From an uncultured Gammaproteobacteria bacterium (lineage in GTDB: Bacteria; Patescibacteriota; Microgenomatia; UBA8517), in assembly GCA_964500695.1 (NCBI GenBank), contig CAZCNT010000001.1, positions 1 through 59,515 on the forward strand: a stretch of 59,515 bases of DNA, in the 5' to 3' direction. The notes beneath the pieces were generated by a model. It was not told the DNA's origin and ran no database searches. It saw only the letters and a program-made list of their open reading frames with translations. The translations under genes were made by a program, and so were the position numbers. This document shows, piece after piece, positions 4,574 through 44,115 of the stretch (the stretch's first letter is position 1; each line of letters begins with the position of its first letter).

Positions 4574-5232
4574 TGATTTTCGTCAATTATAAGACATATG
4601 AAGAAGGGACCGGGCAAAAAGCGGTTGTTCTAACAAAAATTTTGGAAGAAGTTGCTCACGAGACTCAGGTTAAAATCATCCCCGTTGTTCAAATAATAGA
4701 TGCCGAAAGTATTTTGGCCGCAACTACTTTGGAGGTTTGGATTCAACATGTGGACCCGGTGAGTTATGGAGCGCACACCGGCTGGACGCTGCCTGAAGAG
4801 GCCGCAAGGGTCGGAATTTCCGGAGTATTTTTGAATCACTCGGAGCATAAGTTTGACAATTTTGAAAACCTTAGCGTCGCTAACGAAAAAGCGAAGTCTG
4901 CAAATCTAAAAACTTTGATTTTTGCCGGTGACCTGGAAGAACTTAAAAAGGTTTGTGACTTGAATCCAACTTATGTCTCATACGAACCACCTGAATTTAT
5001 CGGTTCGGTAACAACCTCGGTTGCGGAAGCCAAACCAGAAATTGTTTCCCAGGCTGCCGGAATCGCTAGGAGTTTTGGATTGCCTCTTATAGTTGGGGCC
5101 GGAATACATTCGATGGATGATGTCAGAAAAAGTCTGGAGCTCGGAGCGGTTGGAGTTGCCGTGGCAACCGATATCGTCAAGGCGGAAGATCCCAAAAAAG
5201 AACTCTTAGACTTAACGGAGGGGTTCAAATGA
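4573..5232 (+). CDS. tpiA: triosephosphate isomerase, short archaeal-type
   Basis: 219 aa with VNYKTY, NHSEHK, YEPPEFIG and VGAGI motifs. The start overlaps the previous stop (TAATG). Confidence 0.85.
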   Translation: MIFVNYKTYEEGTGQKAVVLTKILEEVAHETQVKIIPVVQIIDAESILAATTLEVWIQHVDPVSYGAHTGWTLPEEAARVGISGVFLNHSEHKFDNFENLSVANEKAKSANLKTLIFAGDLEELKKVCDLNPTYVSYEPPEFIGSVTTSVAEAKPEIVSQAAGIARSFGLPLIVGAGIHSMDDVRKSLELGAVGVAVATDIVKAEDPKKELLDLTEGFK

Positions 5233-5252
5233 TATTTATCGGAGCAGACCAT

Positions 5253-5276
5253 CCCACTTCGCCAAGGCTTCGCGGG
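5253..5276. repeat. intergenic copy of the 26-nt G+C-rich element (core CCCACTTCGCCAAGGCTTCGCGGG)
   Basis: Near-identical to 12331..12356 and 54213..54238. Confidence 0.85.
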
Positions 5277-5299
5277 ACAAGTCGTGGTAATATTGTTTT

Positions 5300-5749
5300 A
5301 TGAAGATCTTTTTGGGTTCGGATCATCGTGGATTTTTGCTTAAGGAAAAAATTGCCAAATGGCTTTATGAGATGAAGCGTGAGTTTCAGGATCTTGGAGC
5401 AGACAGTCTTAATTCTCATGATGATTATACAAAGTACGCCGAAGAGGTGGCCTCACTTGTTGCCAAAACCGAAGGATCCCGTGGGGTGCTTCTTTGCGGG
5501 AGCGGGGTAGGAGTGGAAGTTTTGGCCAACAAATATGATGGAATACGGGCTTCGATAGGGAAGAGTGTTTTGCAGGTTAAAGCGGGAAGGAATGATGACA
5601 ACATAAATATTTTGGTGATCGCCGCCGATTTTACGAGTGAAAAAGAAGCAAAAGCGATGTTGATAGCATTTTTGGAAACTAAATTTTCCGGCAAAGCCAG
5701 ATACGAAAAAAGATTGGAAGAAATAGAGAGAATAGAAGCAAATAATTAG
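5300..5749 (+). CDS. rpiB: ribose-5-phosphate isomerase B
   Basis: 149 aa with GSDHRGF and LLCGSGVGVEVLANK. Confidence 0.9.
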   Translation: MKIFLGSDHRGFLLKEKIAKWLYEMKREFQDLGADSLNSHDDYTKYAEEVASLVAKTEGSRGVLLCGSGVGVEVLANKYDGIRASIGKSVLQVKAGRNDDNINILVIAADFTSEKEAKAMLIAFLETKFSGKARYEKRLEEIERIEANN

Positions 5750-6585: not shown

Positions 6586-7554
6586 ATGATTCTGCCCAAA
6601 ATAACGGATTTAGACGTAATCGGTAAAAGGGTTTTGCTTCGACTTGACCTTGATTGCAATCCCGACCCAAACGATTTAAGAATTAAGGCTTCCGAGGAAA
6701 CTCTCAATTATTTAAAAGAAAGAGGTGCAAGAATAATAATTTTGGCGCATAGAGGCCGTCCCGCCTCCGCAGATGCTTCGGCGAGACAAGCCCTGAGTTT
6801 ACTTCCATTTCAACCAATTTTTGACAAATGGGGAGCAAAAGTAGAAGAAAACTTGAGATTTGACCAGGGTGAAGAATCTAACGATCCTGAATTTGCAAAA
6901 AAACTGGCATCAATGGGCGATTGCTACGTAAACGAAACCTTTGGTTCAAGCCATCGTGAACACGCTTCAATAGTAGGGTTACCAAAATTACTTCCACACG
7001 CAGCCGGCCTTCATTTTGTCAAAGAAATAGAAAATTTAAGCAAGGTGATCGAGAGCCCGGAACACCCCGTACTAATAATCATTAGTGGAATTAAAAAAGA
7101 TAAATTGGAAATGATTGAACCTCTGAGTAATGTTTTTGACAAGGTTCTGGTTGGAGGCCGTTTACCTGAATTTTTGGGGGATGCTTCTTTGGAAAGCGTT
7201 AGGCTTCAAGGGGAAAATAAGAAAGTAATTGTGGGGAATCTTAATATGGATAAAGAAGACATAACCCTGAACACCATCGAGAGATTTGAGAAAGAGATAG
7301 AGAAGGCAAGAACAATCGTCCTAGCAGGTGTTTTAGGAAAATATGAGGATAGTGGCCATAGGCAGGGGACTGAGAGAATATTCAAAGCTGTGGCAGAATC
7401 GCCCGCTTTTAAAATAGTTGGTGGTGGAGATAGTTTGCAAGTAGTAAGCAGTTTAAATCTAAGCCAAAGTTTTGATTGGATTAGCGTTGGTGGCGGTGCA
7501 ATGCTGGAGTTTTTAACAAAAAAAACTTTACCGGGGATCGAAGCCTTGTTGTAA
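6586..7554 (+). CDS. pgk: phosphoglycerate kinase (compact, 322 aa)
   Basis: Contains RLDLD, AHRGRP, NETFGSSHREHAS, VGGGDS and GGGAMLEFL. Shorter than the roughly 390-aa bacterial norm. Confidence 0.88.
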   Translation: MILPKITDLDVIGKRVLLRLDLDCNPDPNDLRIKASEETLNYLKERGARIIILAHRGRPASADASARQALSLLPFQPIFDKWGAKVEENLRFDQGEESNDPEFAKKLASMGDCYVNETFGSSHREHASIVGLPKLLPHAAGLHFVKEIENLSKVIESPEHPVLIIISGIKKDKLEMIEPLSNVFDKVLVGGRLPEFLGDASLESVRLQGENKKVIVGNLNMDKEDITLNTIERFEKEIEKARTIVLAGVLGKYEDSGHRQGTERIFKAVAESPAFKIVGGGDSLQVVSSLNLSQSFDWISVGGGAMLEFLTKKTLPGIEALL

Positions 7555-9137: not shown

Positions 9138-10244
9138 ATGGTTAAAGTAGGAATTAATGGGTTTGGACGAATCGGCCGGATTGCTTTTAGAATAGGACTT
9201 CTAAAACATTCCGACGAACTTCAATTTGGCGCCATAAACACCTCCGGGAGCATGAATACAGCTGGTTGGGCACATCTGACGAATTATGACACGATGTATA
9301 GAAGATTTGAGTATCAAGTGATGAGTGATGAGTCAAAAAAACCGGAGGAAGCGACAGATGAGGATCCGCAGATAGGAAACTTGATGGTTCCAGAGAGAAA
9401 TATTAAAGTTCCGATTTTGGCACAAAGAGATCCGGCAAAGATCCCTTGGGGAAAATACGGAGTTGATGTGGTAATCGAATCGACAGGTGTTTTTACAGAT
9501 GAAGAAGGAGCCAAGAAACATGCAGTTGGGGGAGCGAAGCGCGTTGTAATTTCGGCACCTGCCAAGGGGGGCAATGTAGAAACGCATATTATTGGAGTAA
9601 ATGAGATTAAAGGAAGTCCTGAGGTGATTTCAAATTCCTCCTGTACGACAAATTCAGTTGCTCCGGTTGCCGCGATAATGTTGGCAAAATTTGGCATTGA
9701 AAAAGCCATGATGACAACTATTCATGGTTATACAGATGACCAAAATTTACAGGATGGAAGCCATAAAGATTTGCGACGTGCAAGAGCAGCCGCTATGAAT
9801 ATTGTTCCAACTTCAACAGGCGCCGCAATTTCGACAACGGAAACAATACCTGAACTTAAAGGAATCTTTGACGGCACGGCTTTAAGGGTTCCTGTTGCCA
9901 CAGGTTCTATAACTGATTTTACTTTTATTGTAAAGAAAGAAGTAACAAAAGAAGACGTAAATAACACCTTTAAAGAAGCAGTAAAAAACCCCATATACAA
10001 GGGAGTACTCGCTATTAATGAGCAAGATATTGTATCTAGTGATATCATAGGAAGAAGTGAGTCTGCAATTGTTGATCTACCTTTAACGCAAGTTGTTGCG
10101 GGAAATATGGTTAAAGTTTTTGCTTGGTATGATAACGAATGGGGGTATGCTAATCGTTTGGTCGAGCAAGTTATCCGAGTGGGCAGGACGTTGGAAAACA
10201 ATAGTGCACCTACTGATCCAATATCATTGTCATTCAAATCCTAA
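9138..10244 (+). CDS. gap: glyceraldehyde-3-phosphate dehydrogenase
   Basis: Contains INGFGRIGR, SCTTNS and WYDNEWGY. Carries an acidic insert near residues 58-80. Confidence 0.92.
   Translation: MVKVGINGFGRIGRIAFRIGLLKHSDELQFGAINTSGSMNTAGWAHLTNYDTMYRRFEYQVMSDESKKPEEATDEDPQIGNLMVPERNIKVPILAQRDPAKIPWGKYGVDVVIESTGVFTDEEGAKKHAVGGAKRVVISAPAKGGNVETHIIGVNEIKGSPEVISNSSCTTNSVAPVAAIMLAKFGIEKAMMTTIHGYTDDQNLQDGSHKDLRRARAAAMNIVPTSTGAAISTTETIPELKGIFDGTALRVPVATGSITDFTFIVKKEVTKEDVNNTFKEAVKNPIYKGVLAINEQDIVSSDIIGRSESAIVDLPLTQVVAGNMVKVFAWYDNEWGYANRLVEQVIRVGRTLENNSAPTDPISLSFKS
9311..9334. repeat. heptamer array GTATCAA GTGATGA GTGATGA GTC translated inside gap
   Basis: Tandem 7-nt period seen directly. It is the reverse complement of the TCAC word family. 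Followed by an A7 run. Confidence 0.6.
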
Positions 10245-10250
10245 ATTCAA

Positions 10251-10331
10251 AACACTAAATTCTAATTAAATTCGAATTTCAAAATTACAATTATAAATTT
10301 TTTTAGAGTTTAGAAATTAGAGTTTAGAGTT
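10251..10331. repeat. cargo-less inverted heptamer arrays (AACACTA AATTCTA ATTAAAT ... TAGAGTT TAGAAAT TAGAGTT TAGAGTT)
   Basis: Lies directly after the gap stop. Homologous in layout and words to 43993..44080. Confidence 0.75.
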
Positions 10332-10340
10332 TTAAATAAT

Positions 10341-11790: not shown

Positions 11791-11818
11791 GCAAATAAGC
11801 AAATATGCAAATAAATAC
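11788..11818. repeat. octamer word array (AGCAAATA AGCAAATA TGCAAATA) spanning the tktN stop and the tktC start
   Basis: 8-nt period. The ATG of the next CDS lies inside the third word. Confidence 0.6.
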
Positions 11819-12788
11819 AAAATTAAAATCGATTAGAGATGGATTTGGTGAGGCACTAGTTGAATTGGGAAATAAAAATAAAAACATAGTTGTTTTAACA
11901 GCGGATTTGGCGGAATCAACTCGCGTTAAGGCATTTGCCGATAAATTTCCTGACAGATTTTTCCAGGTTGGAGTGGCCGAGCAAGGTTTGGTAACTATTG
12001 CAGCAGGAATGGCGGAAGCCGGGAAAATTCCTTTTACAACTTCATATGCGGTTTTTTCGCCGGGGCGAACCTGGGAACAGATAAAAGTTACTGCGGCGCT
12101 AAATAACGTTCCTGTGAAGATTGTAGGAGCCCACGCCGGGTTTGGCGCTTCTATGTACGGCGCAACTCATGAATCTTTGGAGGACATTGCACTCATGCGT
12201 GTAATTCCAAATATGATTGTAGTCTCACCATGTGATTATGAAGAGGCCAAAAAAGCCACTCTTGCCGTCGCAAACAATGGAAAACCAACTTATCTCAGAC
12301 TTGCAAGACAAGAGTCACCTGCAATTTCCACCCCACTTCGCCAAGGCTTCGCGGGGCAAGAATTTGAGATAGGAAAGGCAAATGTATTAATCGAAAATAA
12401 AAACCCGCGGGTACTAATTGTAGGATGTGGGTCGATTCTTTCTGAGGCAATTAACGCTTCCGGAGAACTTGAAAAAAGCGGCATCGGGTCGGTTGTTCTA
12501 AATCTACACACAGTCAAACCGATTGACGAGCAGGCTTTGACTCGTTTTGCAAAAATAACTGGTGCGGTTGTAACGGTTGAGGAACACCAGGTCATTGGGG
12601 GATTGGGCGGTGCCGTTGCTGAAGTTCTGGCTAAAAACTTTCCCGTTCCGATGGAGTTTGTAGGAGTTAAAGATTTGTTTGGTGAATCGGCAAGAGACCC
12701 CGATGAGCTTTGGAAGAAATTTGGATTAAAAAAAGAAAATATTATTGAAGCAGTTAAAAAAGTAATTGCCAGAAAAAACGACGTCTAG
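11805..12788 (+). CDS. tkt: transketolase, C-terminal subunit
   Basis: 327 aa with GVAEQ and pyrimidine-binding plus C-terminal domains. Confidence 0.9.
   Translation: MQINTKLKSIRDGFGEALVELGNKNKNIVVLTADLAESTRVKAFADKFPDRFFQVGVAEQGLVTIAAGMAEAGKIPFTTSYAVFSPGRTWEQIKVTAALNNVPVKIVGAHAGFGASMYGATHESLEDIALMRVIPNMIVVSPCDYEEAKKATLAVANNGKPTYLRLARQESPAISTPLRQGFAGQEFEIGKANVLIENKNPRVLIVGCGSILSEAINASGELEKSGIGSVVLNLHTVKPIDEQALTRFAKITGAVVTVEEHQVIGGLGGAVAEVLAKNFPVPMEFVGVKDLFGESARDPDELWKKFGLKKENIIEAVKKVIARKNDV
12331..12356. repeat. 26-nt element CCCCACTTCGCCAAGGCTTCGCGGGG inside tktC (read as PLRQGFAG)
   Basis: Identical to 54213..54238 except for one base. The core is also at 5253..5276. Confidence 0.9.
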
Positions 12789-14008: not shown

Positions 14009-14821
14009 CTACGGGCAAGCCATAAATGTACAGGCTATTTGACCGTTGTCGCAAGAACAAGTGTTACATTTATCCCCGGAAGGAACGCTTTCTCCATTTT
14101 TATATATTCTCCCGTTGTATTGGCAACTTATACCGCTTTCCACCGGTTTTTCATTACCAATAAATTGGAAAGTGGAGAGAATTTGATCAACAATAGTTCC
14201 TTCAGAAACGGGGTAAATAATTGAATATAAAATAGAATTTTCTTCTAACTGCATTCCCAAACTACCGTTCGGCAACTCAAACACAGACCACAACTTACCA
14301 TTTATATTTTTTGTTCCTGTAGACTCCGTATCTAGTAAGAACTTCGGTTGATTGATTGGATATTTTGTAGACGCCTTTATTGTAAAAGAGTTGCTTAAAG
14401 ATTTATCAAAAATCACTTGGACATAATTTGCAGTATCAACTTGATTAGTTTCAATATTAAGTTCATTTGGGTATCTAAAAGAAAGTTTATAGGCACTATT
14501 TACATATGTTTTCCAATTTGCTGTCGGATCGGGAGTTACTTCTGAGGTTGGAGTAGGCAAACCCTCCTCCGCTAGAGGCTTCGGACGGGCAAGGTAATTT
14601 TTGTATGCCCAGAAGCCGAGGGAACCAAGGCTTACGACGACAAGGAGAACAGCCAGAGGTACAAGGAAATTATTTTTTGGTTTGGGGGTTTGATCCATCG
14701 AGGTAATAGGTTGCTGCTCAGTTGCAGCGGCTGTTGGTAGTATTTCAGGTGCCGGTTCAGGGGTCGGAAGTTGAACCGGTTGTGGTGTATTTGAAATCGA
14801 GCCTTGGTTTTCGGGATCCAT
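14009..14821 (-). CDS. membrane-anchored protein with C-terminal VWC-like Cys knot
   Basis: Contains PTANWKTY and C-terminal CQYNGRIYKNGESVPSGDKCNTCSCDNGQIACTFMAC. Confidence 0.65.
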   Translation of the reverse strand: MDPENQGSISNTPQPVQLPTPEPAPEILPTAAATEQQPITSMDQTPKPKNNFLVPLAVLLVVVSLGSLGFWAYKNYLARPKPLAEEGLPTPTSEVTPDPTANWKTYVNSAYKLSFRYPNELNIETNQVDTANYVQVIFDKSLSNSFTIKASTKYPINQPKFLLDTESTGTKNINGKLWSVFELPNGSLGMQLEENSILYSIIYPVSEGTIVDQILSTFQFIGNEKPVESGISCQYNGRIYKNGESVPSGDKCNTCSCDNGQIACTFMACP

Positions 14822-15555: not shown

Positions 15556-16006
15556 TTAGATAACTAGATGATTGGAGATTAGTTAATTGGGGTAAAATAA
15601 ATAAATGAAAGACTTTAGGGAATTAGAAGTATGGAAAACAGGATTATCTCTCCTAATTGAAATATATAAAATTACGGCGAAATTTCCAAGATCAGAAATT
15701 TACGGATTGGTTAATCAGATTAGAAGATCCGCGAATTCTATTATAGCTAATATTGCCGAAAGTCAGGGAAGATTTAGTTTTGCTGATCGTGTTAGAGTTT
15801 TATATCTAGCCAGGGGTGAAATATTCGAAGTTCGTTCCCACTTGAGCGTAGCACATGAATTAAAGTATATTGATAAGGTAACTTTTGAAAAACTTGATAG
15901 CAGTTATGAGGTATTGGCGAAGCAAACGAGCTCTCTTATTAATTATTTAGAGAAAAGAAAACATGTCTGATCCAATTTCTAATCAACCAGTAATCCAGTT
16001 ATCTAA
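15556..16006. mobile_element. putative IR-bounded cassette 1 carrying a four-helix-bundle gene
   Basis: The arms 15556..15590 and 15972..16006 are reverse complements. The outer 10 nt are perfect and 24/35 match ungapped by hand. Confidence 0.6.
15605..15970 (+). CDS. four-helix-bundle protein (23S rRNA intervening-sequence protein family)
   Basis: Contains LEVWK...FPRSEIYGLVNQIRRSANSIIANIAES, the family signature. Confidence 0.85.
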   Translation: MKDFRELEVWKTGLSLLIEIYKITAKFPRSEIYGLVNQIRRSANSIIANIAESQGRFSFADRVRVLYLARGEIFEVRSHLSVAHELKYIDKVTFEKLDSSYEVLAKQTSSLINYLEKRKHV

Positions 16007-20357: not shown

Positions 20358-22775
20358 CTAGTTACTTGTCGAAGCCCCGTTATTAAGTATGTTGCCGGCC
20401 GGAATCGGGCTAGGATTAACTAATTTTTGTATCTGTTCGGGAGAACATGCTCTACCCGGCTTATATTCGTCCAAAAACCACTCTTGGCGTGTCGGGCAGC
20501 CGTTGCAGGGGAGTGTTCCTGTGATTGTGCAGATATTAACTTTGCTTATTCCGTCGGGGGCTTTCCAGTCGATTGAAGGAGAGTCGGCGAGGATTATCAA
20601 CATTATTTTATTCCAGATTGGTGCAGCGCCTGTAATTCCCGAAACAATACGGCTCATGGACGAGTTGTCGTTATTTCCCACCCATGTAAGAACCAAAAAG
20701 TTTTGGTTAAAACCTACCGTCCAGTTGTCTCTAAGGTCATTACTGGTTCCGGTTTTAACGGCGATTTCCGGGTGGTTTTTGACCACCAGACTTGAATTAA
20801 AGCCGAATTCCGGCGCGCGGGCGGCGTTGTCTTTCAGGATGTCAATAAGTGAATAGGCGACTCTGGGATCAAGAACACCGGTACTTTGGGGTGAATTTTG
20901 TTCCAGGACCTTGCTTTTATAGTTTTTGACCTGCAGTATTGGGATTAATTCCGGCCGGTTTCCGGAGTTGGCTACTACTGCGTAGACTTTGGCAAGATCG
21001 ATGCCTTTGACTGCCCCACCTCCAAGGGTTAAAGATAGGCCGTATAAAGACGGATCATTCCAGGTAGTAATGCCAAGGTTTTTACCTTCTTTAATCATTT
21101 TATCTACTCCGTAACTGGCCAAAACCCGAACTGCCGGAACGTTTCGGCTCTGGGCGAGTGCATTCCTTAAAGAAATATGTCCTCTAAATTGACCGTCATA
21201 ATTTACTGGGGAGTAAGGTGTGGTCCCGGGTGTATTGTAAGTAATCGGGGAGTCATTAAGGATTGTTGCGGGAGTGTATACTCCGCTCGCGAGAGCGAAA
21301 GCGTAATTTATTACTTTTATTGAACTTCCTGGTTGACGAAGCCTAGTCAGAACATTTACGTTTCCATCCGCTTTAGTGTCAAAATAATCTTTAGACCCAA
21401 CCATGGCGAGTATCTCTCCTGTTTTTGGATTAAGTACAAGTGCGGCCCCGTTTCCAACATGTAAGCCTTTAAGTTTTTCCACCTCTTCTTGAACTATTTT
21501 CTCGGCAGCCATCTGCGTTGAAAGGTCCAGGCTGGTAGTAACCTCAAGACCGCCCTTTTCAACCATATCTTCACCGTATTTATCTACCAGTAGCTGTCTA
21601 ACATACATTACAAAGTGAGGTGCTTTTATTTCTGTTTTATTGGTAACCAGTTTGAGGACCTCGGCTCCGGCATCTTCCTCTTGTTTGACTGTTATATATT
21701 TATTAATTGTCATTAAACGAAGAACTTCTTTTTGTCTTTGTAAGGCTAAATCCGAATTTTGGCCGAATGGAGAATAAAATGTTGGGCTTCTGGGAAGCCC
21801 TGCCAGGAAGGCGGCTTCGGCAAGATCAAGATCACGCGCAGATTTTCCGAAATACAACCTGCCGGCTTCCTCGATGCCGTAGGCAGTGCCACCGTAGCTT
21901 ACTTCATTTAAATACATCTCAAGTATCTGATCTTTTGTATAAGAGGCCTCGACTTGAATTGATAAAATTAGTTCCCTAATCTTACGGGTTAGAGTTTTTT
22001 CCGGTGTTAGAAGGGCATTTTTGACCAACTGCTGAGTTATGGTGGAACCCCCCTGAAGGGATCCTGTTTGGGCATCGGTAACGATGGCCCTTATGATTCC
22101 TCTGATCGAAAAACCGGGATGATTATAAAATTCTGCATCTTCGGCAGCCAGAGTAGACAACCGGACATGGGGAGGAATGTCGGACAAGGGGATGATGGTT
22201 CTGTTTTCATTTTTATATATTTTATAAAGCAAGTTTCCCTGTCTATCATAAATTTTGGTTGAAACTTCAGGCTCTCTTTGGGATAGTTGCCTTGGAGACG
22301 GCAGAGACCGAAATATTACAAAATAGATGTAAAAAGTTAAGAAAAAAACTGTCAATATCAAAGAGATTAGACCAACCCTTTTTTTCAGTTGAAGTTTTTG
22401 AAAGCGTGTAATTTTTTTAGCAAACAGTTTCCTGACTGACGACGCTATTTTTTGTTCCATGAGAGAAATTCTTAAGGTTTCAAGCCGGAAAAATACTCTA
22501 ATCTTGGGGACACGGGTCTTGGGAGTTTTGACGCGAAGAGTGAGTAAACTCTTCAGGTTTTTAATGATAAAAGTAAAGATTGTCTTTTCAATCCTTCCCA
22601 CTAAAAACAGAAGAAAAATTAAGCCGAGGATGGCATTTGAGATAATAAAATAAAAAGGCCTACCGATAAGGGATAACCCTTCGGCAATAATCTTTAGAGG
22701 ATTAATCGTCAGTTTTTTGGATGTGGGAATCAATTTCTCGTCCGACAATAACCTTATTTTTATTTTTCTTGACAC
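20358..22775 (-). CDS. class A penicillin-binding protein (transglycosylase/transpeptidase)
   Basis: Contains EDAEFYNHPG, GGSTITQQL, SSIK, SRN and KTGT. The start is uncertain because several in-frame Met residues are present. Confidence 0.9.
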   Translation of the reverse strand: MSRKIKIRLLSDEKLIPTSKKLTINPLKIIAEGLSLIGRPFYFIISNAILGLIFLLFLVGRIEKTIFTFIIKNLKSLLTLRVKTPKTRVPKIRVFFRLETLRISLMEQKIASSVRKLFAKKITRFQKLQLKKRVGLISLILTVFFLTFYIYFVIFRSLPSPRQLSQREPEVSTKIYDRQGNLLYKIYKNENRTIIPLSDIPPHVRLSTLAAEDAEFYNHPGFSIRGIIRAIVTDAQTGSLQGGSTITQQLVKNALLTPEKTLTRKIRELILSIQVEASYTKDQILEMYLNEVSYGGTAYGIEEAGRLYFGKSARDLDLAEAAFLAGLPRSPTFYSPFGQNSDLALQRQKEVLRLMTINKYITVKQEEDAGAEVLKLVTNKTEIKAPHFVMYVRQLLVDKYGEDMVEKGGLEVTTSLDLSTQMAAEKIVQEEVEKLKGLHVGNGAALVLNPKTGEILAMVGSKDYFDTKADGNVNVLTRLRQPGSSIKVINYAFALASGVYTPATILNDSPITYNTPGTTPYSPVNYDGQFRGHISLRNALAQSRNVPAVRVLASYGVDKMIKEGKNLGITTWNDPSLYGLSLTLGGGAVKGIDLAKVYAVVANSGNRPELIPILQVKNYKSKVLEQNSPQSTGVLDPRVAYSLIDILKDNAARAPEFGFNSSLVVKNHPEIAVKTGTSNDLRDNWTVGFNQNFLVLTWVGNNDNSSMSRIVSGITGAAPIWNKIMLIILADSPSIDWKAPDGISKVNICTITGTLPCNGCPTRQEWFLDEYKPGRACSPEQIQKLVNPSPIPAGNILNNGASTSN

Positions 22776-22831: not shown

Positions 22832-25048
22832 TTATCGTTTTGACTGCAGAGGATATCTAATTATGGCTGAGGCGCTGGCAACGGGGCAGTCGAGACAGTA
22901 GAGAGTTCCGTCGGGATCTGTATAGGTTGGGTGATTTTCGGTGTTAACCAGGTCGGGGGGAGCATCTGAAGGAGCTTGCTGACGGGTATCTTTGAAAACT
23001 TGAATGTCCTGGTTTGTAATGAGAGAAGTTTTGGGCAAAGTTCCTGTAAGGAAATATTCAAACCTAGTGGGGCAGCTCGGATTACCCACATCACCTCCCG
23101 AAAGTCCTCCCGTGTTTGCACAAATCGAGGCTCCAATTACCCCCTCCGGCTGTTTTGGCCAGGAATGACCTTTCTCATTTGAGTCATATACTCCGGCCTC
23201 CGCCTTATCTAAAACCGCCTTCATTATTTTATTCCAAATAGGAGAAGCACCGGATACTCCTGAAACCGCCCCGCTCATGGGAGTATTGTTGTTATTTCCG
23301 ACCCAGGTCACAACAACGGTATTAGCAGTGTAGCCGATGGTCCAATTGTCGCGCCTATCGTTCGTTGTTCCTGTTTTAACGGAAACTTCAGGATGCCCGG
23401 AAACATTAAGGAAAGAACTGGTACCGAAAGCGTTAGTACGGGCATTGTTGTCATAAAGAATGTGGGAAATAAGAAATGTCACCGGGGGGTCTAAAACCCT
23501 GTTGCCCGTTAACTTGAGCTTTTTGGTGTCTATTTCCTGCAAGACCTGACCTTTCCAGTTGGTTACTTTGGTAATTGCCATAAGTGGTTGTTTTATTCCC
23601 TGGTTTGCAAAAACTCCAAATGCTACAGCCATATCATAAGGACGGACTTCTCCTCCTCCCAGGGTTAGCGAAAGACCATAATTACTGGGATCTGTTAGGG
23701 TTGTAATTCCCATTTCGCTCGCAAAGTTTGTAAAATTTTCGACTCCGTTTAGTGCCAAAACCCGCACGGCGGGGATGTTGTACGAATTTCCTAAAGCAAA
23801 GCGCGCTTGTACCAATCCATGAAAAGTTCCGTCATAATTGACCGGGCAGTAGTCCTGTTGCCCGACAACTTTAAAGCAAGTCGGAACGTCGGTAAATGCG
23901 GTTGCCGGGGTAATCTTTTGATCTTTTAGGGCCAGAGCATAGTTAAGAGGTTTGATTGAACTTCCGGGCTGACGCTGGGAGAGGATAACATTTACTTTAC
24001 CATCCTCGTCTTTTGCAAAGTAGTCCTTGGAGCCAATCATGGCCAAAATTTCTCCGGTTCCCGGGCGCGTAACAATAACTGCGCCGTTACCGACTTTTTG
24101 TTTTTCAAGTTTGGCAACCTCTGTGGCTACAGCTTGTTGGGCAAAGTCTTGGATATCAAGGTCCAAGGTTGTGTAAACTCGGAGCCCTCCTCTCTCAACC
24201 ATCCTGTCACCATATTTGTCTGCCATTTGCTCTTTTATCCAAAGGGCAAAATGGGGCGCCTGCGGAGGACTAACACTTGTATATTTAAGCTCTTCTTTGG
24301 CTGTAGCATTTGCTTGATCTTGAGTAATATATTTATTTGCGACCATTTGTTTTAAGACTTCTTTTTGTCTACTTTTAGCAAGTTCCGGGTGGGCTCCGAA
24401 AGGGGAGTAGGTGGAAGGTCTTTGCGGTAAGCCCGCAATCAGGGCCGCCTCTGCCAGATTAAGATCGTGTGCCTGTTTGTCAAAATAGGTTTCGCTGGCA
24501 GCTTCAATTCCGTAGGCTGTCCCTCCGTAGGGAATCTGATTTAGATACATTTCTAAAATTTGATCCTTTGTGTAAACTCCTTCAACAATGACTGTTAAAA
24601 CAATTTCTTGAGCTTTGCGCCTTAGTGTTCTTTCCGGAGAAAGAAGAGCATTTTTAACAAACTGTTGAGTTATTGTAGAACCGCCTTGCAGCTCATGTTT
24701 GAAAATTGAGTTAAATACAGCTCTGGTAATTCCGGTTAAAGAAAAACCCTGATGTCTATAAAAATCTTTGTCCTCAATCGATATTGTTGCGTTTTTAACG
24801 TTGTCGGGAATATCAGACAGCCTGACGGGAGTTCTTTTTCTATCGGTGTAGATTTCGTAAATGAGCTTGCCGTTTCTGTCAAATATTTTAGTTGAAACCT
24901 GTTGGTTTGATTCCGAGAGTCGGGTTAGGAGTGGAATCCCCCAAAATAGATATAAATTTATTCCAATGAGGAGGCCAAAAAAAACTATTTTTTTCCTGCC
25001 CCGCGTTGTAGAAAAAAGAGATTTAAGATTTGCAAAAATACTTCTCAC
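22832..25048 (-). CDS. class A penicillin-binding protein, second paralog
   Basis: Contains EDKDFYRHQG, GGSTITQQF, SSIK, SYN and KTGT. Confidence 0.9.
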   Translation of the reverse strand: MRSIFANLKSLFSTTRGRKKIVFFGLLIGINLYLFWGIPLLTRLSESNQQVSTKIFDRNGKLIYEIYTDRKRTPVRLSDIPDNVKNATISIEDKDFYRHQGFSLTGITRAVFNSIFKHELQGGSTITQQFVKNALLSPERTLRRKAQEIVLTVIVEGVYTKDQILEMYLNQIPYGGTAYGIEAASETYFDKQAHDLNLAEAALIAGLPQRPSTYSPFGAHPELAKSRQKEVLKQMVANKYITQDQANATAKEELKYTSVSPPQAPHFALWIKEQMADKYGDRMVERGGLRVYTTLDLDIQDFAQQAVATEVAKLEKQKVGNGAVIVTRPGTGEILAMIGSKDYFAKDEDGKVNVILSQRQPGSSIKPLNYALALKDQKITPATAFTDVPTCFKVVGQQDYCPVNYDGTFHGLVQARFALGNSYNIPAVRVLALNGVENFTNFASEMGITTLTDPSNYGLSLTLGGGEVRPYDMAVAFGVFANQGIKQPLMAITKVTNWKGQVLQEIDTKKLKLTGNRVLDPPVTFLISHILYDNNARTNAFGTSSFLNVSGHPEVSVKTGTTNDRRDNWTIGYTANTVVVTWVGNNNNTPMSGAVSGVSGASPIWNKIMKAVLDKAEAGVYDSNEKGHSWPKQPEGVIGASICANTGGLSGGDVGNPSCPTRFEYFLTGTLPKTSLITNQDIQVFKDTRQQAPSDAPPDLVNTENHPTYTDPDGTLYCLDCPVASASAIIRYPLQSKR

Positions 25049-25065
25049 ATATTAAATTATACTGT

Positions 25066-25584
25066 ATGCACTCTTTAGATCAACTCGAGGGAAAAATTTG
25101 GTGGTCGTATGTCGGGGAAGATCTTCAGAAACTTCTGAAGTCGTCAATATTTATACATACGACAGTAAAAGGTTTGGGGGTAGATCTCCCAGGCGGGAGG
25201 CGTGAGTTTGACGATTATTCATTTGTAGTCTTTCCGGCCGCAAAAGCCTATGAAGGCTTTTTGAAGAAACTTTTTCTTGATCTTAAGTTCATCACAGAGG
25301 AAGATTACTACGGTAAACATTTTAGGATAGGTAAGGCTCTTAATCCGTCACTGCCAAAAGAGTTAATGAAGGAGGGAATTTATAACAAAATAGTTAAATA
25401 TTGTCAGGGAAAGGACTTGGCCGAAAAACTTTGGGAGACCTGGAAACTTAGTCGAAACTTGATATTCCACTGGTTTCCAAATGAGAGAAACGCAATCACG
25501 CTTAATGAGGCAGGAGAGAGGGTAGAAATGATAATTTCTGTGATTGATCAGTCATTTCAGGAATGCAGAATTGACACTAAGTGA
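25066..25584 (+). CDS. putative HEPN-domain protein (RnlA/LsoA DBD-like?)
   Basis: SRNLIFH fits the HEPN Rx4H motif. FPAAKAYEGFLKKL is reminiscent of the RnlA-type domain (from memory). Start taken at the ATG at 25066. Confidence 0.45.
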   Translation: MHSLDQLEGKIWWSYVGEDLQKLLKSSIFIHTTVKGLGVDLPGGRREFDDYSFVVFPAAKAYEGFLKKLFLDLKFITEEDYYGKHFRIGKALNPSLPKELMKEGIYNKIVKYCQGKDLAEKLWETWKLSRNLIFHWFPNERNAITLNEAGERVEMIISVIDQSFQECRIDTK

Positions 25585-33830: not shown

Positions 33831-34091
33831 ATGTTAACCAAGCGTACAAACGTGCTACTCTCCGAAGAAGATCACTTAATGCTTACCAATTTAGCCAAGG
33901 AGTCTAATAAGACGATTGGAGAGCTTGTCCGTCATGCTGTTAAAAAGACGTACAAGATCAATAAAAGAAAGACTAAGTCTAAAATAAACAAAGAGCTTGA
34001 AGCGGCTATTAAAAGCGGTTGGAAATATTTAAAACATCCCGAAATTCCTTTGGATTATAAAGCATTAATAGAGTATGGACGCAAATATTAA
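33831..34091 (+). CDS. ribbon-helix-helix antitoxin (VapB/CopG-like)
   Basis: MLTKRTNVLLSEEDHLMLTNLAKE has the RHH pattern. Overlaps the PIN gene. Confidence 0.75.
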   Translation: MLTKRTNVLLSEEDHLMLTNLAKESNKTIGELVRHAVKKTYKINKRKTKSKINKELEAAIKSGWKYLKHPEIPLDYKALIEYGRKY

Positions 34092-34467
34092 AAACTTTAT
34101 TGTTGACGCTTCGTATTTACTTTCGGTTTTATTACCCGATGAGGCATCGAGTGAAGAGTCTAAAAAACATCTTACCATGATAATAAACAGGACTTATAAG
34201 TTTTTTGCCCCTAAAATTTTGGAATTCGAAGTTTGTAACAGCATAAAAACGACAGTAATACGTAATAGAATCGGAAAGACTTCGGCAGAAAAGATACTCA
34301 CAAGATTTAACAAAATACCAATAAATTATTTAGATATAAATAGAGAAAGAGTTTTAGATCTTTCAATAAATAAAAACTTAACATTTTATGATGCTTCATA
34401 TTTGTATTTAGCTAGGATTAATAAATATAAACTTTTAACTTTGGATAAAAAGTTAGAGAAGCTTTAA
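34075..34467 (+). CDS. vapC: PIN-domain toxin (VapC-like)
   Basis: 130 aa with FIVDASYLL at the N-terminus and D...YDASYL...LTLD acidic residues. Confidence 0.8.
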   Translation: MDANIKNFIVDASYLLSVLLPDEASSEESKKHLTMIINRTYKFFAPKILEFEVCNSIKTTVIRNRIGKTSAEKILTRFNKIPINYLDINRERVLDLSINKNLTFYDASYLYLARINKYKLLTLDKKLEKL

Positions 34468-35033: not shown

Positions 35034-37356
35034 TGGTGTAAATTTTGGTGTGATAATTTTTTCTGCGGTAGGAATTGCCTTATTTATATTTCTGATGGTG
35101 GCCATGGGCTATCTAATTTTTGCGATGTTTAGACACAGAAAACGGGAAGAAACTTCAATCGATTCGGTTCTTCTTTCCGTGGCACTTCCCCGGAATAACG
35201 AGATAAAAATTGATGCCATGGAGCAGCTTTTCTCTTCTCTCTATTCGATTAAAAAGGGTGGTTATTGGCAAAAATTTGATATTCAACCGGCAATTTCCTT
35301 CGAAATTGTGGCGAAGCAAGAAGATATTAGGTTTTATGTCTGGGCGCCGAAGAAGCTTAAGGATTTAGTCGAAAAGCAAATTAATGGGAGTTACCCGGAT
35401 GCAGAGATTCTTGAAACAGATGAATACAACATTTTTACGAGTGACGGTAAAGTTGCTTATAAGTCTTTTCAACTGTCAAAAAGTTCCTTTTTTCCAGTAA
35501 AAACATTTAAAGATTTGGCAACCGATCCGATGGGGGGAATTACCTCGGCTTTAGCTAAAATGGGACCCGGTGAGGCTGCTGCAATTCAGGTTATAATTTC
35601 TCCCGCAGAGAACGATTGGCAAAAAGAGGGGAGCCATTTTATAAGTGATACCAAAAAACAGGAAAGCGACCCGGAAAAAGCCAAGTTTTCCACCTCTGCA
35701 AAAACTCTTGAGGCAGTAGAAAATAAAGTGGGGAAACCGGGTTTTGAAACTTCTATAAGAATTATTGCAATTTCCGACGACGAAGCCTCTGCAAAAAGCC
35801 ATGTAGCAAACATTTCAAGCGCTTTTGCTCAGTTTAACGGGGATCTAAATAATCTAAAGAGTAGGAAAATCCGTCGGAAGGGCGCTTTTATGGAAGATTT
35901 TCTTTACCGATACCTACCCATGTTTAATGTTTTTGGCAATCATCCTTCGATTCTAAATTCCGAAGAGTTGGCTACAATATTTCACTTTCCCAACAGACAG
36001 ATTACTACCCCGCATGTTTTTTGGCTTAATGCAAAAACAGCGCCTGCCCCGGCCCAAATTCCCAACGAGGGGCTTCATTTGGGGGTAAGCAGCTATCGTG
36101 GTATTAAGCGGGAGGTTTATATAGGGAATGAAGACAGAATGCGCCATATTTACATTATTGGAAAAACCGGAACCGGAAAATCGGAAATTCTTAAAGACAT
36201 GATTTTACAGGATATAAAGGACGGAAAAGGACTTTGTTTTATGGATCCGCACGGAGATGCAATTGAAGATATTCTGAAGCTAATTCCACCCGAAAGAGTA
36301 GAAGATGTAATTTATTTTAACCCCAATGATACCCAGCGCCCTATTGGAATGAACTTACTTGAAGCCAGAACCGAAGACGAGAAACATTTTGCGGCAACTA
36401 GCATTATTAATCTTATGTACAAGCTTTTTGATCCTTACAAAACCGGGATTGTAGGACCAAGATTTGAACATGGAGTTAGAAATGCCATGCTTACCGTAAT
36501 GGCAGAACCGGGAAATACGTTTGTCGAACTGATGCGCGCCATGACGGACTCCAGATATGTTCAGGAACTTCTGCCCAAGGTTACCGACCCGATTATTCGG
36601 AGATATTGGACAGATCAGATTGCGCAAACTAGCGACTTTCACAAGTCGGAGGTGTTGGATTATACGGTTTCAAAGTTTGGCCGTTTTGTTACAAATAAAT
36701 TAATCAGAAATATCATAGGGCAGCCTCAAAGCTCGTTTGATTTCAGAAAAATTATGGATGAAGGAAAAATTCTTCTTGTTAACCTGGCAAAAGGAGAATT
36801 GGGGGAGGAGAACAGTAATTTTTTGGGACTTCTTTTAGTTCCCAGGATTCTTATGGCTGCAATGAGCCGCGCAGATGTTCCGATGGAGCAGCGCCGCGAT
36901 TTTTACTTTTATGTTGATGAGTTTCAAAATTTTGCTACCCCGGATTTTGCCGTGATTCTTTCCGAAGCCAGAAAATACCGTCTTGGTCTTTGCGTTGCCA
37001 ATCAGTTTATCGGTCAGGTGGAAGATGAGGTCAAAAACGCCGTATTTGGAAATGTGGGTACAAAAATAAGTTTTAGGGTGGGTGTATCAGACGCCAATTT
37101 TTTGGCGCATGAATATGCCCCGGTTTTTGGAGAGGACGATTTACTTAATGTTGAACGTTTTCATGCTTATGTAACCACCATCGTTGACAACGAGCCGGTT
37201 CCTCCATTTTCTATGGATACGACGAAAGATATAAGTAAGATTAAAGCTATGGAAAGCCCGAGAATTGCTGAAATAATTAAGGAGATGAGCAGACTCAAGT
37301 ATGGCAGGGACGAGAGACTGGTGGAAGCTGAAATGAACCGAAGGTCTAAACTGTAA
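35023..37356 (+). CDS. VirD4/TraD-like (type IV coupling protein-like) membrane ATPase
   Basis: N-terminal TM pair, Walker A GKTGTGKSE and Walker B-like FYFYVDEFQNF. 777 aa. Confidence 0.75.
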   Translation: MYLDGVNFGVIIFSAVGIALFIFLMVAMGYLIFAMFRHRKREETSIDSVLLSVALPRNNEIKIDAMEQLFSSLYSIKKGGYWQKFDIQPAISFEIVAKQEDIRFYVWAPKKLKDLVEKQINGSYPDAEILETDEYNIFTSDGKVAYKSFQLSKSSFFPVKTFKDLATDPMGGITSALAKMGPGEAAAIQVIISPAENDWQKEGSHFISDTKKQESDPEKAKFSTSAKTLEAVENKVGKPGFETSIRIIAISDDEASAKSHVANISSAFAQFNGDLNNLKSRKIRRKGAFMEDFLYRYLPMFNVFGNHPSILNSEELATIFHFPNRQITTPHVFWLNAKTAPAPAQIPNEGLHLGVSSYRGIKREVYIGNEDRMRHIYIIGKTGTGKSEILKDMILQDIKDGKGLCFMDPHGDAIEDILKLIPPERVEDVIYFNPNDTQRPIGMNLLEARTEDEKHFAATSIINLMYKLFDPYKTGIVGPRFEHGVRNAMLTVMAEPGNTFVELMRAMTDSRYVQELLPKVTDPIIRRYWTDQIAQTSDFHKSEVLDYTVSKFGRFVTNKLIRNIIGQPQSSFDFRKIMDEGKILLVNLAKGELGEENSNFLGLLLVPRILMAAMSRADVPMEQRRDFYFYVDEFQNFATPDFAVILSEARKYRLGLCVANQFIGQVEDEVKNAVFGNVGTKISFRVGVSDANFLAHEYAPVFGEDDLLNVERFHAYVTTIVDNEPVPPFSMDTTKDISKIKAMESPRIAEIIKEMSRLKYGRDERLVEAEMNRRSKL

Positions 37357-37805
37357 GGCAAGTAATAAAAGTAAATAAAGTAATGAAGGTAATACAAGTA
37401 TGGAAAGTGGATACAAGAAGCTGATAGTTTGGCAGGAAGCTTTAAAGTTGATAGTTTTGGTTTATAGGTTAACGAAGACCTTCCCAAAATCTGAAGACTA
37501 TGCGCTAAGAGACCAAATAAGGAGAGCGGTGGTCTCGGTGTTAAGCCAGATTGCTGAAGGGTGGCTGCGTAGCTCCAAAAAAGATAAACTTCACTATCTT
37601 GAAATTTCATTAGGTTCTTTAATGGAGGTTGAGTCTCAGGCCGAAGTAGCATTAGCAGTTGGGTACTGGAATTTTAACAATCTGCAAGATTTTGAGGCTC
37701 AACGGGCCAAAGTTTGCTATCTTCTGGTAAGGTATGTTTCTAAGATTAAGTCCGGTTAGCCTTCTTATTACCTGTATTACTTCTATTACGTTTATTACTT
37801 TTTCG
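37356..37805. mobile_element. putative IR-bounded cassette 2 carrying a four-helix-bundle gene
   Basis: The arms 37360..37399 and 37760..37800 are reverse complements (30/40 by hand). They are built of 9-nt GTAAT words. Confidence 0.65.
37400..37759 (+). CDS. four-helix-bundle protein (23S rRNA IVS protein family)
   Basis: Contains LIVWQEALKL...FPKSEDYALRDQIRRAVVSVLSQIAEG. Confidence 0.85.
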   Translation: MESGYKKLIVWQEALKLIVLVYRLTKTFPKSEDYALRDQIRRAVVSVLSQIAEGWLRSSKKDKLHYLEISLGSLMEVESQAEVALAVGYWNFNNLQDFEAQRAKVCYLLVRYVSKIKSG

Positions 37806-39041: not shown

Positions 39042-39923
39042 TTATAGCTCAATGAGGGTTTGTTTCTTGCCTGTCTCTGTTATTTGAGCCAGCTCCAAGT
39101 AGCGCTCGGTTGTGGAAAGACGCTTGTGACCGGAGACCTGAGAAAGAAGTACCAAGTCAACTTCATTTTTGAGATTCTCAACAATAAAAGTAGTTCTTAA
39201 GTCATTAACCGAGTAGCTGGGAAGCTCTGCCCGCTGCATATACCTGGAGATTGAAGCCCTGATGTTTCTGACCGCCAAAGGCTTACCGTTTTTGCTGATA
39301 AAAACATAGGGAGAGTCAGACTTGGGTCTGATATTCATATAAGAAACAAGGGTTTCTTGGGATGGATTGTTCAATGGAATGTTTCTTTCCGGTTGGGTGG
39401 CATAGGACTCAACTTTGAGAGAACCGTCCTTGACACCCACAGTTTTAAGATTGGCCACCTCCGAAATTCGAAGCCCCGTTTGTAGTATCAATTCAATGAT
39501 CGCCGCGATCCGAATGTCGCTTCTGACAACGTCCCTCAGTGCCCTATATTCGAGCTGAGAGAGAAACCTGGGAAGTGAGTTTTCGATTTTGGGATGGGCA
39601 ACGGATGCTGACACATCCCCGGTTATGATATTTTCGGAAATCATCCATCTGAAGAAAGTTTTAACGGCATTAAGTTTTCTACTTACCGACTTGGCTGTGT
39701 ATTTATCGGCCAAAAGAGTGTCGCGGAAGGAATCAAGATCGTCGGGTCTAACCTGTGTGGGTGTAACCTTACTCTTTTTGATCAAAAATTCCACTAACTG
39801 TTCAAGATCGCTTTTGTAGGCCAAAATAGTCGCCGGAGAGCGACTTTTAGCTTTCAACGATTCGATAAACTTAGGAAGCAGGTTTTTTATCGTAAATACG
39901 TCTTTCATTGTATCTTCTGTCAT
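39042..39923 (-). CDS. tyrosine site-specific recombinase, XerC/XerD-like
   Basis: SAM-like N-domain (TILAYKSDLEQLVEFL), then GLRISEV ... GHKRLSTTERY. Confidence 0.85.
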   Translation of the reverse strand: MTEDTMKDVFTIKNLLPKFIESLKAKSRSPATILAYKSDLEQLVEFLIKKSKVTPTQVRPDDLDSFRDTLLADKYTAKSVSRKLNAVKTFFRWMISENIITGDVSASVAHPKIENSLPRFLSQLEYRALRDVVRSDIRIAAIIELILQTGLRISEVANLKTVGVKDGSLKVESYATQPERNIPLNNPSQETLVSYMNIRPKSDSPYVFISKNGKPLAVRNIRASISRYMQRAELPSYSVNDLRTTFIVENLKNEVDLVLLSQVSGHKRLSTTERYLELAQITETGKKQTLIEL

Positions 39924-41964: not shown

Positions 41965-42036
41965 GCCAATGTAGCTCAGCGGTAGAGCGTTCGTTTCATA
42001 AGCGAAAAGTCGAAGGTCCGACTCCTTCCATTGGCA
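41965..42036 (+). tRNA. tRNA with anticodon CAU (elongator Met, or Ile2 if lysidinylated)
   Basis: Hand fold: GCCAATG-TA-GCTC-AGCGGTA-GAGC-G-TTCGT-TTCATAA-GCGAA-AAGTC-GAAGG-TCCGACT-CCTTC-CATTGGC-A. No CCA is encoded. Confidence 0.8.
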
Positions 42037-42049
42037 CAAGTAAACTCTC

Positions 42050-42078
42050 TTGACAAGTTGTACATACTCTTGTACACT
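42050..42078 (+). promoter_or_regulatory. TTGACA-17-TACACT promoter 6 nt upstream of the antitoxin ATG (leaderless), with two TGTACA palindromes
   Basis: TTGACA at 42050..42055, TGTACA at 42059..42064 and 42071..42076, TACACT at 42073..42078, and ATG at 42085. Confidence 0.5.
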
Positions 42079-42084
42079 TTTACC

Positions 42085-42357
42085 ATGACTGGAATAATTA
42101 ACATATCCGATGCGAGATCAAAGCTTCCTGCGTTGGTGGACGAAGTTGGTGAGGGTCTGTCCCGTTTTTTGATTACAGTAAACAGCAAACCGAAGGCGGT
42201 CCTTATTGGTGTTGAAGAATTGGAATCCCTGGAAGAAACTGCTGAAATTATGGCTATTCCTGGAGCTTATAAGGCTATCAAAAAAGGTTACAAACAAGCT
42301 AAAATTGGCGATGGCGTCGCCTGGTCTGAATTTAAGAAAAAGTATAATATTGAGTGA
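42085..42357 (+). CDS. Phd/YefM-family antitoxin
   Basis: Contains MTGIINISDARSKLPALVDEV...ITVNSKPKAVLIG. Uses the internal ATG of the track ORF. Confidence 0.8.
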   Translation: MTGIINISDARSKLPALVDEVGEGLSRFLITVNSKPKAVLIGVEELESLEETAEIMAIPGAYKAIKKGYKQAKIGDGVAWSEFKKKYNIE

Positions 42358-43979: not shown

Positions 43980-43992
43980 CGCACAAATACAA

Positions 43993-44080
43993 AACTCTAA
44001 TTTCTAAATCCTAATTAAATCCAAAATTGGAATTTGTAAATTAAAATTTATTTAGAGTTTAGAATTTAGGATTTAGGGTT
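43993..44080. repeat. cargo-less inverted heptamer arrays (AACTCTA ATTTCTA AATCCTA ATTAAAT ... TAGAGTT TAGAATT TAGGATT TAGGGTT)
   Basis: 7-nt period on both arms. The arms are roughly complementary when G-U pairs are allowed. Same layout as 10251..10331. Confidence 0.75.
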
Positions 44081-44115
44081 TCAGCTTTAACAAAGCTGAT
44101 GTATAATCCCTCTGT

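Follow-up and report, generated by a model that had tools for sequence, protein, structure and literature searches.

A 59,515-nucleotide stretch of Patescibacteria DNA (contig CAZCNT010000001.1, hereafter the window) carries five copies of a G+C-rich palindromic element of about 30 nt, all of them in coding or formerly coding sequence. In the genes for a transketolase C-terminal subunit (tktC) and an ATP-dependent DNA ligase, the element is a derived insertion that is translated in frame and is present in some orthologues and absent from most. With a probability of roughly 55%, we read it as a non-autonomous hairpin akin to repetitive extragenic palindromic (REP) sequences, one that inserts rarely, spreads by short-patch recombination and is tolerated in frame within protein linkers.

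The family is defined by a 24-nt core, CCCACTTCGCCAAGGCTTCGCGGG, which is found exactly at 5253-5276 and 12332-12355 and with one C>T change at 54214-54237, always on the plus strand. A sequence-only reading of this DNA had held that three near-identical copies could not be due to chance, and 100 dinucleotide shuffles yielded none. The same reading placed the unit at 24-26 nt. The repeat stands, but its length does not: once the flanks of the three copies are aligned, conservation is seen to span about 30 nt, (Y)CCCAC-TTCGCCAAGGCTTC-GHGGG(R)-CARG, including a 3' RCARG tail. Thirty nucleotides correspond to ten codons, and direct reading of the sequence reveals no stop codon in any of the six frames. 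The three copies are A1 (5253-5282; CCCACTTCGCCAAGGCTTCGCGGGACAAGT, with T5252 pairing with A5277), A2 (12331-12360) and A3 (54213-54242; the T variant, with a perfect 6-bp stem). To these we add two diverged members that had gone unnoticed. Copy B (6758-6792) lies inside the phosphoglycerate kinase gene pgk (6586-7554, plus strand) and has arms GTCCCGCC and GGCGAGAC, core TCCGCAGATGCTTC and tail AAGCC; copy C (14562-14594) lies within a minus-strand gene for a hypothetical membrane or secreted protein (14009-14821). Both have the architecture of the A copies, with arms that differ in sequence but are complementary. A relaxed pattern, GAAGC-N3-6-GCGRA, matches the window six times, all on the minus strand, against 0.71 matches expected; these are the five copies and a stemless match at 24491 that is probably chance. 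All five copies have one chromosomal orientation, on the G-rich strand. A scan of the window with Rfam 15 returned nothing at the element, its sole match at the gathering threshold being a tRNA at 41965-42036. Among the papers searched, none has the 16-mer and none connects REPs to Patescibacteria.

Copy A2 sits in tktC (11805-12788, plus strand; 327 aa, with Transket_pyr at residues 9-171 and Transketolase_C at 194-313), in the linker that joins the Pyr and C-terminal domains, and is translated PLRQGFAGQ. Copy A3 sits in the ligase gene (53344-55032, plus strand; 562 aa), in the adenylation domain after the LDSEAIG motif (motif III; LDxE), and is translated PTSPRLRGAG. Translation confirms the frames first proposed, T-PLRQGFAG-Q and D-PTSPRLRG-A. 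Copy B is translated ASADASARQA and copy C is read LARPKPLAEEG on the reverse strand; the window members use all three sense frames and one antisense frame. Among 120 relatives of TktC (74-94% identity), 11 carry the peptide, whereas SPxxT-KPEDK-FEIGK stands in the others. The loop length is unchanged in more distant Patescibacteria orthologues (53-82% identity, 80 DNA loci), and it is constant in all element-free Patescibacteria orthologues of TktC, as it is in the ligase. The ligase peptide is found in 4 of 120 relatives, one of which is identical to the window protein, and in locus L051, while the remaining relatives read DP-KRQ-MF. At the insert both proteins are six residues longer than almost all close relatives, and alignment with the solved split transketolase 6yaj and the solved archaeal ligase 2hiv leaves a six-residue gap exactly at the insert sites, in agreement with the earlier impression that each is several residues longer than is usual for its family. 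Orthologue alignment, which had been suggested as a check, reveals presence/absence polymorphism in both genes and does not bear out an ancestral peptide. The inserts probably lie in linkers or loops of the host enzymes, as had been supposed: the alignments to solved structures place them in gaps, but the AlphaFold models (predicted local distance difference test scores of 63 for TktC and 56 for the ligase) are too poor in the relevant domains to confirm this in three dimensions. One predicted tryptic peptide spanning the insert in TktC is QGFAGQEFEIGK.

The junctions are not those of a clean insertion. The net gain is 18 nt in the main tkt type and in the ligase, 15 nt in P0074 (locus L203), 21 nt in P0174, 6 nt in P0107 and 9 nt in pgk, and it reaches 30 nt in a relic of rpiB and about 30 nt at a second ligase site, in the N-terminal domain (L001, L041). 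Because the gain is below 30 nt at most sites, host nucleotides were either replaced or trimmed later; usually 9-18 nt of host loop are swapped out per unit of about 30 nt. Target duplication is seen at none of the junctions compared, and protein clusters of 90% identity show no indel polymorphism, the insert being in every member. The suggestion of a small selfish insertion sequence in surface loops thus stands as to the derived, in-frame state and the gap sites, but not as to the kind of element, which lacks coding capacity and terminal inverted repeats and is not accompanied by target duplication. It may be selfish in nature; no mobilising enzyme was found in the searches described below.

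At copy B, the window PGK reads GRP-ASADASARQA-LSL where that of a more distant relative, L209, reads GRP-EGKVDER-LSL, and copy C is absent from the homologue of its minus-strand host gene in a close relative, L207. Copy A1 had been described as intergenic between tpiA and rpiB. Its place is as described, but it lies inside a relic mini-ORF (open reading frame) of 24 codons (5229-5303, plus strand; MIFIGADH-PTSPRLRGTS-RGNIVL*) that overlaps both genes: the ATG at 5229 overlaps the tpiA stop codon (ATGA), and the relic's own stop overlaps, again as ATGA, the start codon of today's rpiB, whose sequence opens with MKIFLGSDHRGF. In L209, rpiB starts MKIYIGADHRGY right after tpiA, 11 nt past its end, and we therefore take the window mini-ORF to be the ancestral 5' end of rpiB. 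A complete 30-nt unit splits it exactly where the catalytic DH meets RG, and a replacement 5' end comes after. The same arrangement of tpiA, relic and rpiB is found in L207.

The element has a conserved secondary structure. On the minus strand it consists of 5'-CTTG, a 6-bp stem, GAA, GC, a loop of 4-5 nt, GC, GAA and the other arm of the stem. The arms vary and covary around a GAAGC...GCGAA core that is conserved. This strand folds as GCCCCGC-GAA-GC-CUUG-GC-GAA-GUGGGGU with a z score of about -2.1, and the plus strand folds more weakly. Folding energies of the minus-strand copies run from -15.7 to -25.3 kcal/mol, the latter for copy B. It had been noted that the ends CCCCAC and GYGGGG can pair, and the outermost pair does covary among the three near-identical copies (T...A in A1, C...G in A2 and A3). 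In a set of 101 distinct aligned copies from other genomes, pair 8-33 is CG in 63, UA in 29 and UG in 4, and pair 9-32 is CG in 86, UA in 5 and AU in 4. The stem covariation score is 0.195 versus 0.126 in shuffles, a value that 0 of 500 shuffles reached, and controls with a slid stem fall to 37-52% paired. Opposite A5, 38 of these copies have G.U, 31 have A-U and 32 have U.U, so a mismatch is tolerated there. The CTTG tail at the 5' end of the hairpin strand is unpaired and moderately conserved. Folding energy and the G.U pairs at 12-29 favour the minus strand as the functional one, although not decisively, a third of copies being mispaired at 12-29 on either strand.

The element is not confined to the window or to its phylum. 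At least 120 stretches of species-representative genomes contain the 19-mer CCACTTCGCCAAGGCTTCG without mismatch, and the right arm also matches in about 106 of the 123 matches listed. Hosts among these listed matches include many Patescibacteria lineages, rumen and gut Alphaproteobacteria, Rickettsiales, Asticcacaulis (an isolate among them), Verrucomicrobiota, Planctomycetota and the isolate Geomonas paludis; the cultured carriers are G. paludis and Asticcacaulis taihuensis. Loci labelled as Patescibacteria comprise 23 in sense within a long ORF, 6 in antisense within a long ORF and 14 in intergenic DNA or a short ORF. Alphaproteobacterial loci are intergenic or in a short ORF in 26 of 32 cases, with 3 in sense and 3 in antisense; here copies either separate a stop codon from an intrinsic terminator or lie amid mosaics of other hairpins. 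Sense copies among those listed use the three frames 22, 12 and 9 times. Host genes elsewhere encode class I tRNA synthetases, ribosomal protein L3, RecF, a Fic protein and ligase (at two sites). GC skew is positive in the orientation of the element at 64 of 100 loci. The window holds 5 copies in 59.5 kb, and the alphaproteobacterial rumen genome bin RGIG6385 has at least six loci among the matches listed. Spread on phage or plasmid replicons is unsupported, with only 2 matches in 2.9 million viral contigs and no real match in plasmids.

Several of these loci have features of their own. Copies adjoin tRNA genes to the nucleotide at four loci (L085 7561-7653, L096 7899-7992, L114 1864-1959 and L099 542-633); in three the hairpin strand lies directly 5' and its last G is tRNA position +1, and in one the element starts at the tRNA 3' end. 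At the Patescibacteria-like loci L025, L056, L061 and L105, the element is embedded in AAACTC or AATTTTC tandem repeats that themselves lie within ORFs. Twenty-two loci titled 'uncultured Gammaproteobacteria/Pseudomonadales' (including L027, L034, L045, L048 and L056) have 42% G+C, intragenic copies and Patescibacteria-type ligase and Fic neighbours. Since they behave like Patescibacteria, their taxonomic labels are to be distrusted.

Carriers are scattered among non-carriers. When the loop is masked, the nearest TktC neighbours of carriers P0004, P0005, P0041 and P0074 are element-free, at distances of 0.05-0.13, and the nearest neighbours of ligase carriers likewise lack the element. Since a loss precise enough to bring back the ancestral loop is implausible, the pattern calls for repeated gain at one site or short-patch lateral transfer. 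Among six carrier tktC genes, divergence at third-codon positions is 0.15 inside the element versus 0.56 outside (0.62 at approximately four-fold sites outside), and all-position divergence inside is 0.09. In the ligase, third-codon divergence is 0.1-0.3 inside and 0.46-0.59 outside. Alignment of the window with L207 over 3000-24000 gives a mosaic in which identity ranges from 76% to 98% in neighbouring segments, a pattern that indicates frequent recombination among Woesebacteria lineages. Copy A1, which is identical in L207, lies inside an exact run of 183 nt (5185-5367); the tpiA-rpiB region as a whole is 77% identical, the next longest run is 49 nt and tpiA itself is only about 70% identical. 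Copy A2 lies inside the longest exact run of tktC, 131 nt, and copy B within a stretch of 98 nt that has one mismatch. In each gene the copy falls in the longest identical stretch or in one nearly as long. Identity that reaches tens of bases into flanking synonymous sites argues for recent short-tract recombination carrying, or stimulated by, the element, and against constraint on the hairpin alone. We infer that the element spreads among related genomes by short-patch homologous recombination.

Among known systems, REPs are the closest match. Like them, the element is an imperfect G+C-rich palindrome in the 20-40-nt range with an unpaired tag beside the stem, and it is dispersed, oriented and free of target duplication; its 30 nt hold the stem-loop of a REP, a covarying 6-bp stem plus an inner GC/GC helix. 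In Proteobacteria the likeness extends to context, with copies that are intergenic, near terminators and in direct and inverted clusters. REPs within genes, including ligase and tRNA synthetase genes, have already been catalogued (Di Nocera et al., 2013; PMC3733652). In one spacer of Geomonas paludis (L013 2140-2370), two inverted copies that begin with GTAG come after about five degenerate copies in direct orientation. This cluster resembles the bacterial interspersed mosaic elements (BIMEs) of enterobacteria, which are clustered REP mosaics, and the inverted copies possibly link the element to GTAG-tagged REPs. They are the only ones to start with GTAG: the tag is otherwise CTTG (variants CCTG, CTCG and TTTA) and not GT[AG]G or CGTC. 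The element differs further in that Patescibacteria copies are mostly intragenic and single, not doublets, and in that its core is common to several phyla, whereas classical REP families are largely species- or genus-specific. REP systems also number tens to hundreds of copies per genome and include a cognate Y1 gene, that for a REP-associated tyrosine transposase (RAYT), which typically has REPs on either side. No RAYT gene was found in the flanks of 120 copies or among the window ORFs scanned. On our best reading, then, the element lies outside the tagged REP superfamilies, as it lies outside the Rickettsia palindromic family, and is filed as a kind of REP. Its distinctive features are its intragenic position in Patescibacteria, its recurrence at the same codons and a core common to phyla.

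We propose that new copies arise rarely, without target duplication and with strand bias. The lack of duplication together with the bias suggests an intermediate in the form of a single-stranded DNA (ssDNA) hairpin at the replication fork, a route with which the single structured arm pair and the unpaired tag at the hairpin foot are also consistent. A route of this sort has been put forward for REPs with their RAYT transposases and for IS200/IS605 elements. An HUH/Y1 RAYT-like transposase acting in trans, or plain annealing of ssDNA, could be the agent. Patescibacteria are gene-dense and have almost no intergenic DNA, and the copies that survive in them would be those in frame within genes, at tolerant linkers and loops. 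There the unit, being ten codons long and free of stops, would be translated, presumably as filler in the host protein, and the host loop may often be trimmed so that the net gain falls below 30 nt. The element-bearing patch could then move among related lineages by short-tract homologous recombination. Such spread would account for the scattered distribution over the gene trees, for copies that stay near-identical where synonymous sites are saturated and for the stretches of perfect identity around each copy.

Several results weigh against a REP-like mobile hairpin. No transposase-like gene is enriched in the ORF clusters flanking 120 copies, where only housekeeping families recur. A tblastn search of about 1.4 Mb of loci, with one unverified query sequence each for RAYT and IS200 TnpA, gave no match, a Pfam scan of 37 window ORFs found no Y1 transposase domain, and the GTAG or CGTC tag of the known REP superfamilies is missing. 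In Patescibacteria DNA selected only for tktC, strict matches are sparse (3 per 387 kb). Insertions that replace host nucleotides are atypical of transposase-mediated events. Finally, a purely neutral selfish element would hardly be expected to keep a core of 19-24 nt near-identical across phyla, and the core may be under functional constraint.

This last point makes a functional nucleic-acid motif a serious rival, though a clearly less probable one. A DNA or RNA hairpin that is bound or processed by a conserved host factor, for instance in replication priming, topology, RNA processing or mRNA stability, would be under purifying selection on its nucleotides, and the peptide would be a by-product. 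The core is invariant in paralogues, orthologues and phyla despite saturated synonymous sites; a stem that covaries, together with an internal loop that is conserved, is the mark of a structure that is recognised; copies abut tRNA gene ends at four loci; and copy B is identical in L207 over little beyond its own length. A site under such selection is nevertheless difficult to reconcile with its absence from most orthologues and from most of the Patescibacteria DNA sampled, with positions that are scattered and not syntenic between lineages, and with identity patches around A1 and A2 that run 36-91 nt into flanking coding sequence, too far for a 30-nt site. Nor does it fit the mispairing opposite A5 in at least one third of copies, on either strand, or the blank Rfam result. 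Somewhat less probable again is annealing of the SPDIR type (short-patch double illegitimate recombination), in which stable ssDNA hairpin fragments, from the cell's own genome or taken up, would anneal at the fork by microhomology of their arms and be built in like Okazaki fragments in place of a short target stretch. Within the hairpin strand is GCGAAGC, a DNA mini-hairpin of unusual stability. The events at hand are indeed replacements of variable size and not clean insertions, as in SPDIR, where ectopic ssDNA replaces a short stretch with variable net length change. The strand bias fits too, and some empty sites resemble arms without a loop, such as AAACCC/GGGGACAAG (L150) and GACCAC/AGGGGC (rpiB, L209; the slash marks the junction). 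The formal test of that resemblance, which scored empty sites against the arms with the loop removed, is weak and not significant, with sites ranging from the top 3% down to random and the empty alleles nearest to carriers scoring poorly (0.58, 0.15 and 0.38); it failed to demonstrate microhomology at the junctions. SPDIR itself has been documented for Acinetobacter baylyi (bioRxiv 10.1101/2023.11.22.568220). Each of its events is unique and arbitrary in sequence, whereas in the present case a single defined hairpin is met with hundreds of times; annealing leaves unexplained why this sequence was copied so often over other ssDNA.

A doubtful variant, of about the same standing, combines parts of these views: a structure-constrained 30-nt hairpin cassette might circulate across phyla without a dedicated transposase, be written in at forks as nuclease-resistant ssDNA, and then, by short recombination tracts or a local hot spot, repeatedly remodel the same loops of essential enzymes in Patescibacteria. 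If true, this would be a new mode of mobility for what is to our knowledge the smallest mobile element, and a general source of the 'extra loops' of Patescibacteria proteins. It is very improbable that the element is a signal for DNA uptake in natural transformation, like the uptake sequences that occupy tolerant coding positions in Neisseria and Pasteurellaceae. The carrier lineages are thought to be naturally competent, copies are frequent in genes and in several frames, and an association with recombination tracts would fit. Uptake sequences, however, occur about once per kb in one taxon, and the density here falls short of that by orders of magnitude (5 in 60 kb in the window, 3 in 387 kb or about 1 per 100 kb elsewhere). 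One identical signal in unrelated phyla would be unexpected, and the strand bias and structured 30-nt design are unlike known uptake sequences. That there is no element at all, and that an ancestral peptide, convergent coding, or an assembly or contamination artefact has misled us, we regard as scarcely credible. Short G+C-rich matches can mislead, and this prior alone speaks for it. Against it, most orthologues and the solved homologues lack the peptide, identical nucleotides are read in three frames and on the reverse strand, and the element is present in two cultured species, G. paludis and A. taihuensis. An assembly artefact is excluded by identical host proteins on independent contigs drawn from four repositories (NCBI, JGI, ENA and Logan): TktC is recorded on 13 contigs and the ligase on 7, the former protein being identical to KKR70852.1 from a Candidatus Woesebacteria genome bin.

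The element was compared with other short elements as well. The sequence-only reading had drawn an analogy to Rickettsia palindromic elements, which are about 100-150 bp long and restricted to Rickettsia and relatives. The analogy holds for behaviour, since both are palindromic, lie in frame in essential genes, are translated in tolerant regions and show presence/absence among orthologues. It does not hold for family membership: the present element is 30 nt long, unrelated in sequence and found in several phyla (Patescibacteria, Proteobacteria, Verrucomicrobiota/Planctomycetota and Geomonas). The G+C clusters, double-hairpin elements and 'byp' elements of fungal mitochondria are likewise short, mobile, G+C-rich hairpins that can enter coding sequence in compact A+T-rich genomes. 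They belong to another domain of life and have other sequences, and byp is skipped by the ribosome, whereas the element here is in frame and presumably translated. Miniature inverted-repeat transposable elements measure 70-300 bp; at 30 nt, with host nucleotides replaced and no duplication at the junctions compared, the element is not one of them. It is a single hairpin whose flanks have no consensus beyond CTTG, unlike palindrome-associated elements derived from IS200/IS605, which have two different subterminal hairpins, one at the left and one at the right end, and insert 3' of a fixed tetra- or pentanucleotide. No run of T follows any window copy, as it would in an intrinsic terminator, and the alphaproteobacterial loci have a separate terminator downstream. 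We also rejected an intron or intein (the frame is kept and splice features are absent), a CRISPR repeat (there is no regular array) and the target of a diversity-generating retroelement (variation is not adenine-specific).

Patescibacteria have tiny, gene-dense genomes that are usually called poor in mobile DNA, and yet a hairpin repeat is found within their essential genes, among them those for transketolase, phosphoglycerate kinase, a replicative-type ATP ligase, tRNA synthetases and ribosomal protein L3. The same codon has been hit in separate lineages, and in the window one scar has apparently forced a rebuilt 5' end on rpiB. The element could serve as a countable marker of recent recombination in uncultivated lineages, of loops that tolerate insertion and of the movement of REP-like hairpins. 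Near-identity of a core across phyla is not predicted by current REP models. In practical terms, such inserts inflate the apparent novelty of proteins and can mislead alignment and gene calling in metagenome-assembled genomes.

The window has other repeats and accessory genes. Two genes for '23S rRNA intervening sequence' or bAvd-like four-helix proteins (PF05635) lie at 15605-15967 and 37400-37756; the second comes after a tandem repeat of an A+T-rich 9-mer (37345-37409) that is found again at 50706-50738 and 51262-51317. A 97-nt A+T-rich sequence is found at 10236-10332 and again, 33.7 kb away, at 43985-44081, both times in an intergenic spacer, and the pair was reported in direct (76%) as well as in inverted orientation (77%). 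Small accessory genes at 34075-34464, 39045-39923, 41965-42354, 25030-25581 and 48130-48504 comprise a PIN toxin, a tyrosine recombinase near a tRNA gene and a Phd antitoxin, an RnlA-like HEPN protein and a PD-(D/E)XK (PDDEXK_3) nuclease. Two adjacent paralogous minus-strand ORFs of 738-805 aa (20361-22775 and 22835-25048) have several repeat blocks in common at 72-74% identity, and their equivalents in relatives match transglycosylase/transpeptidase families.

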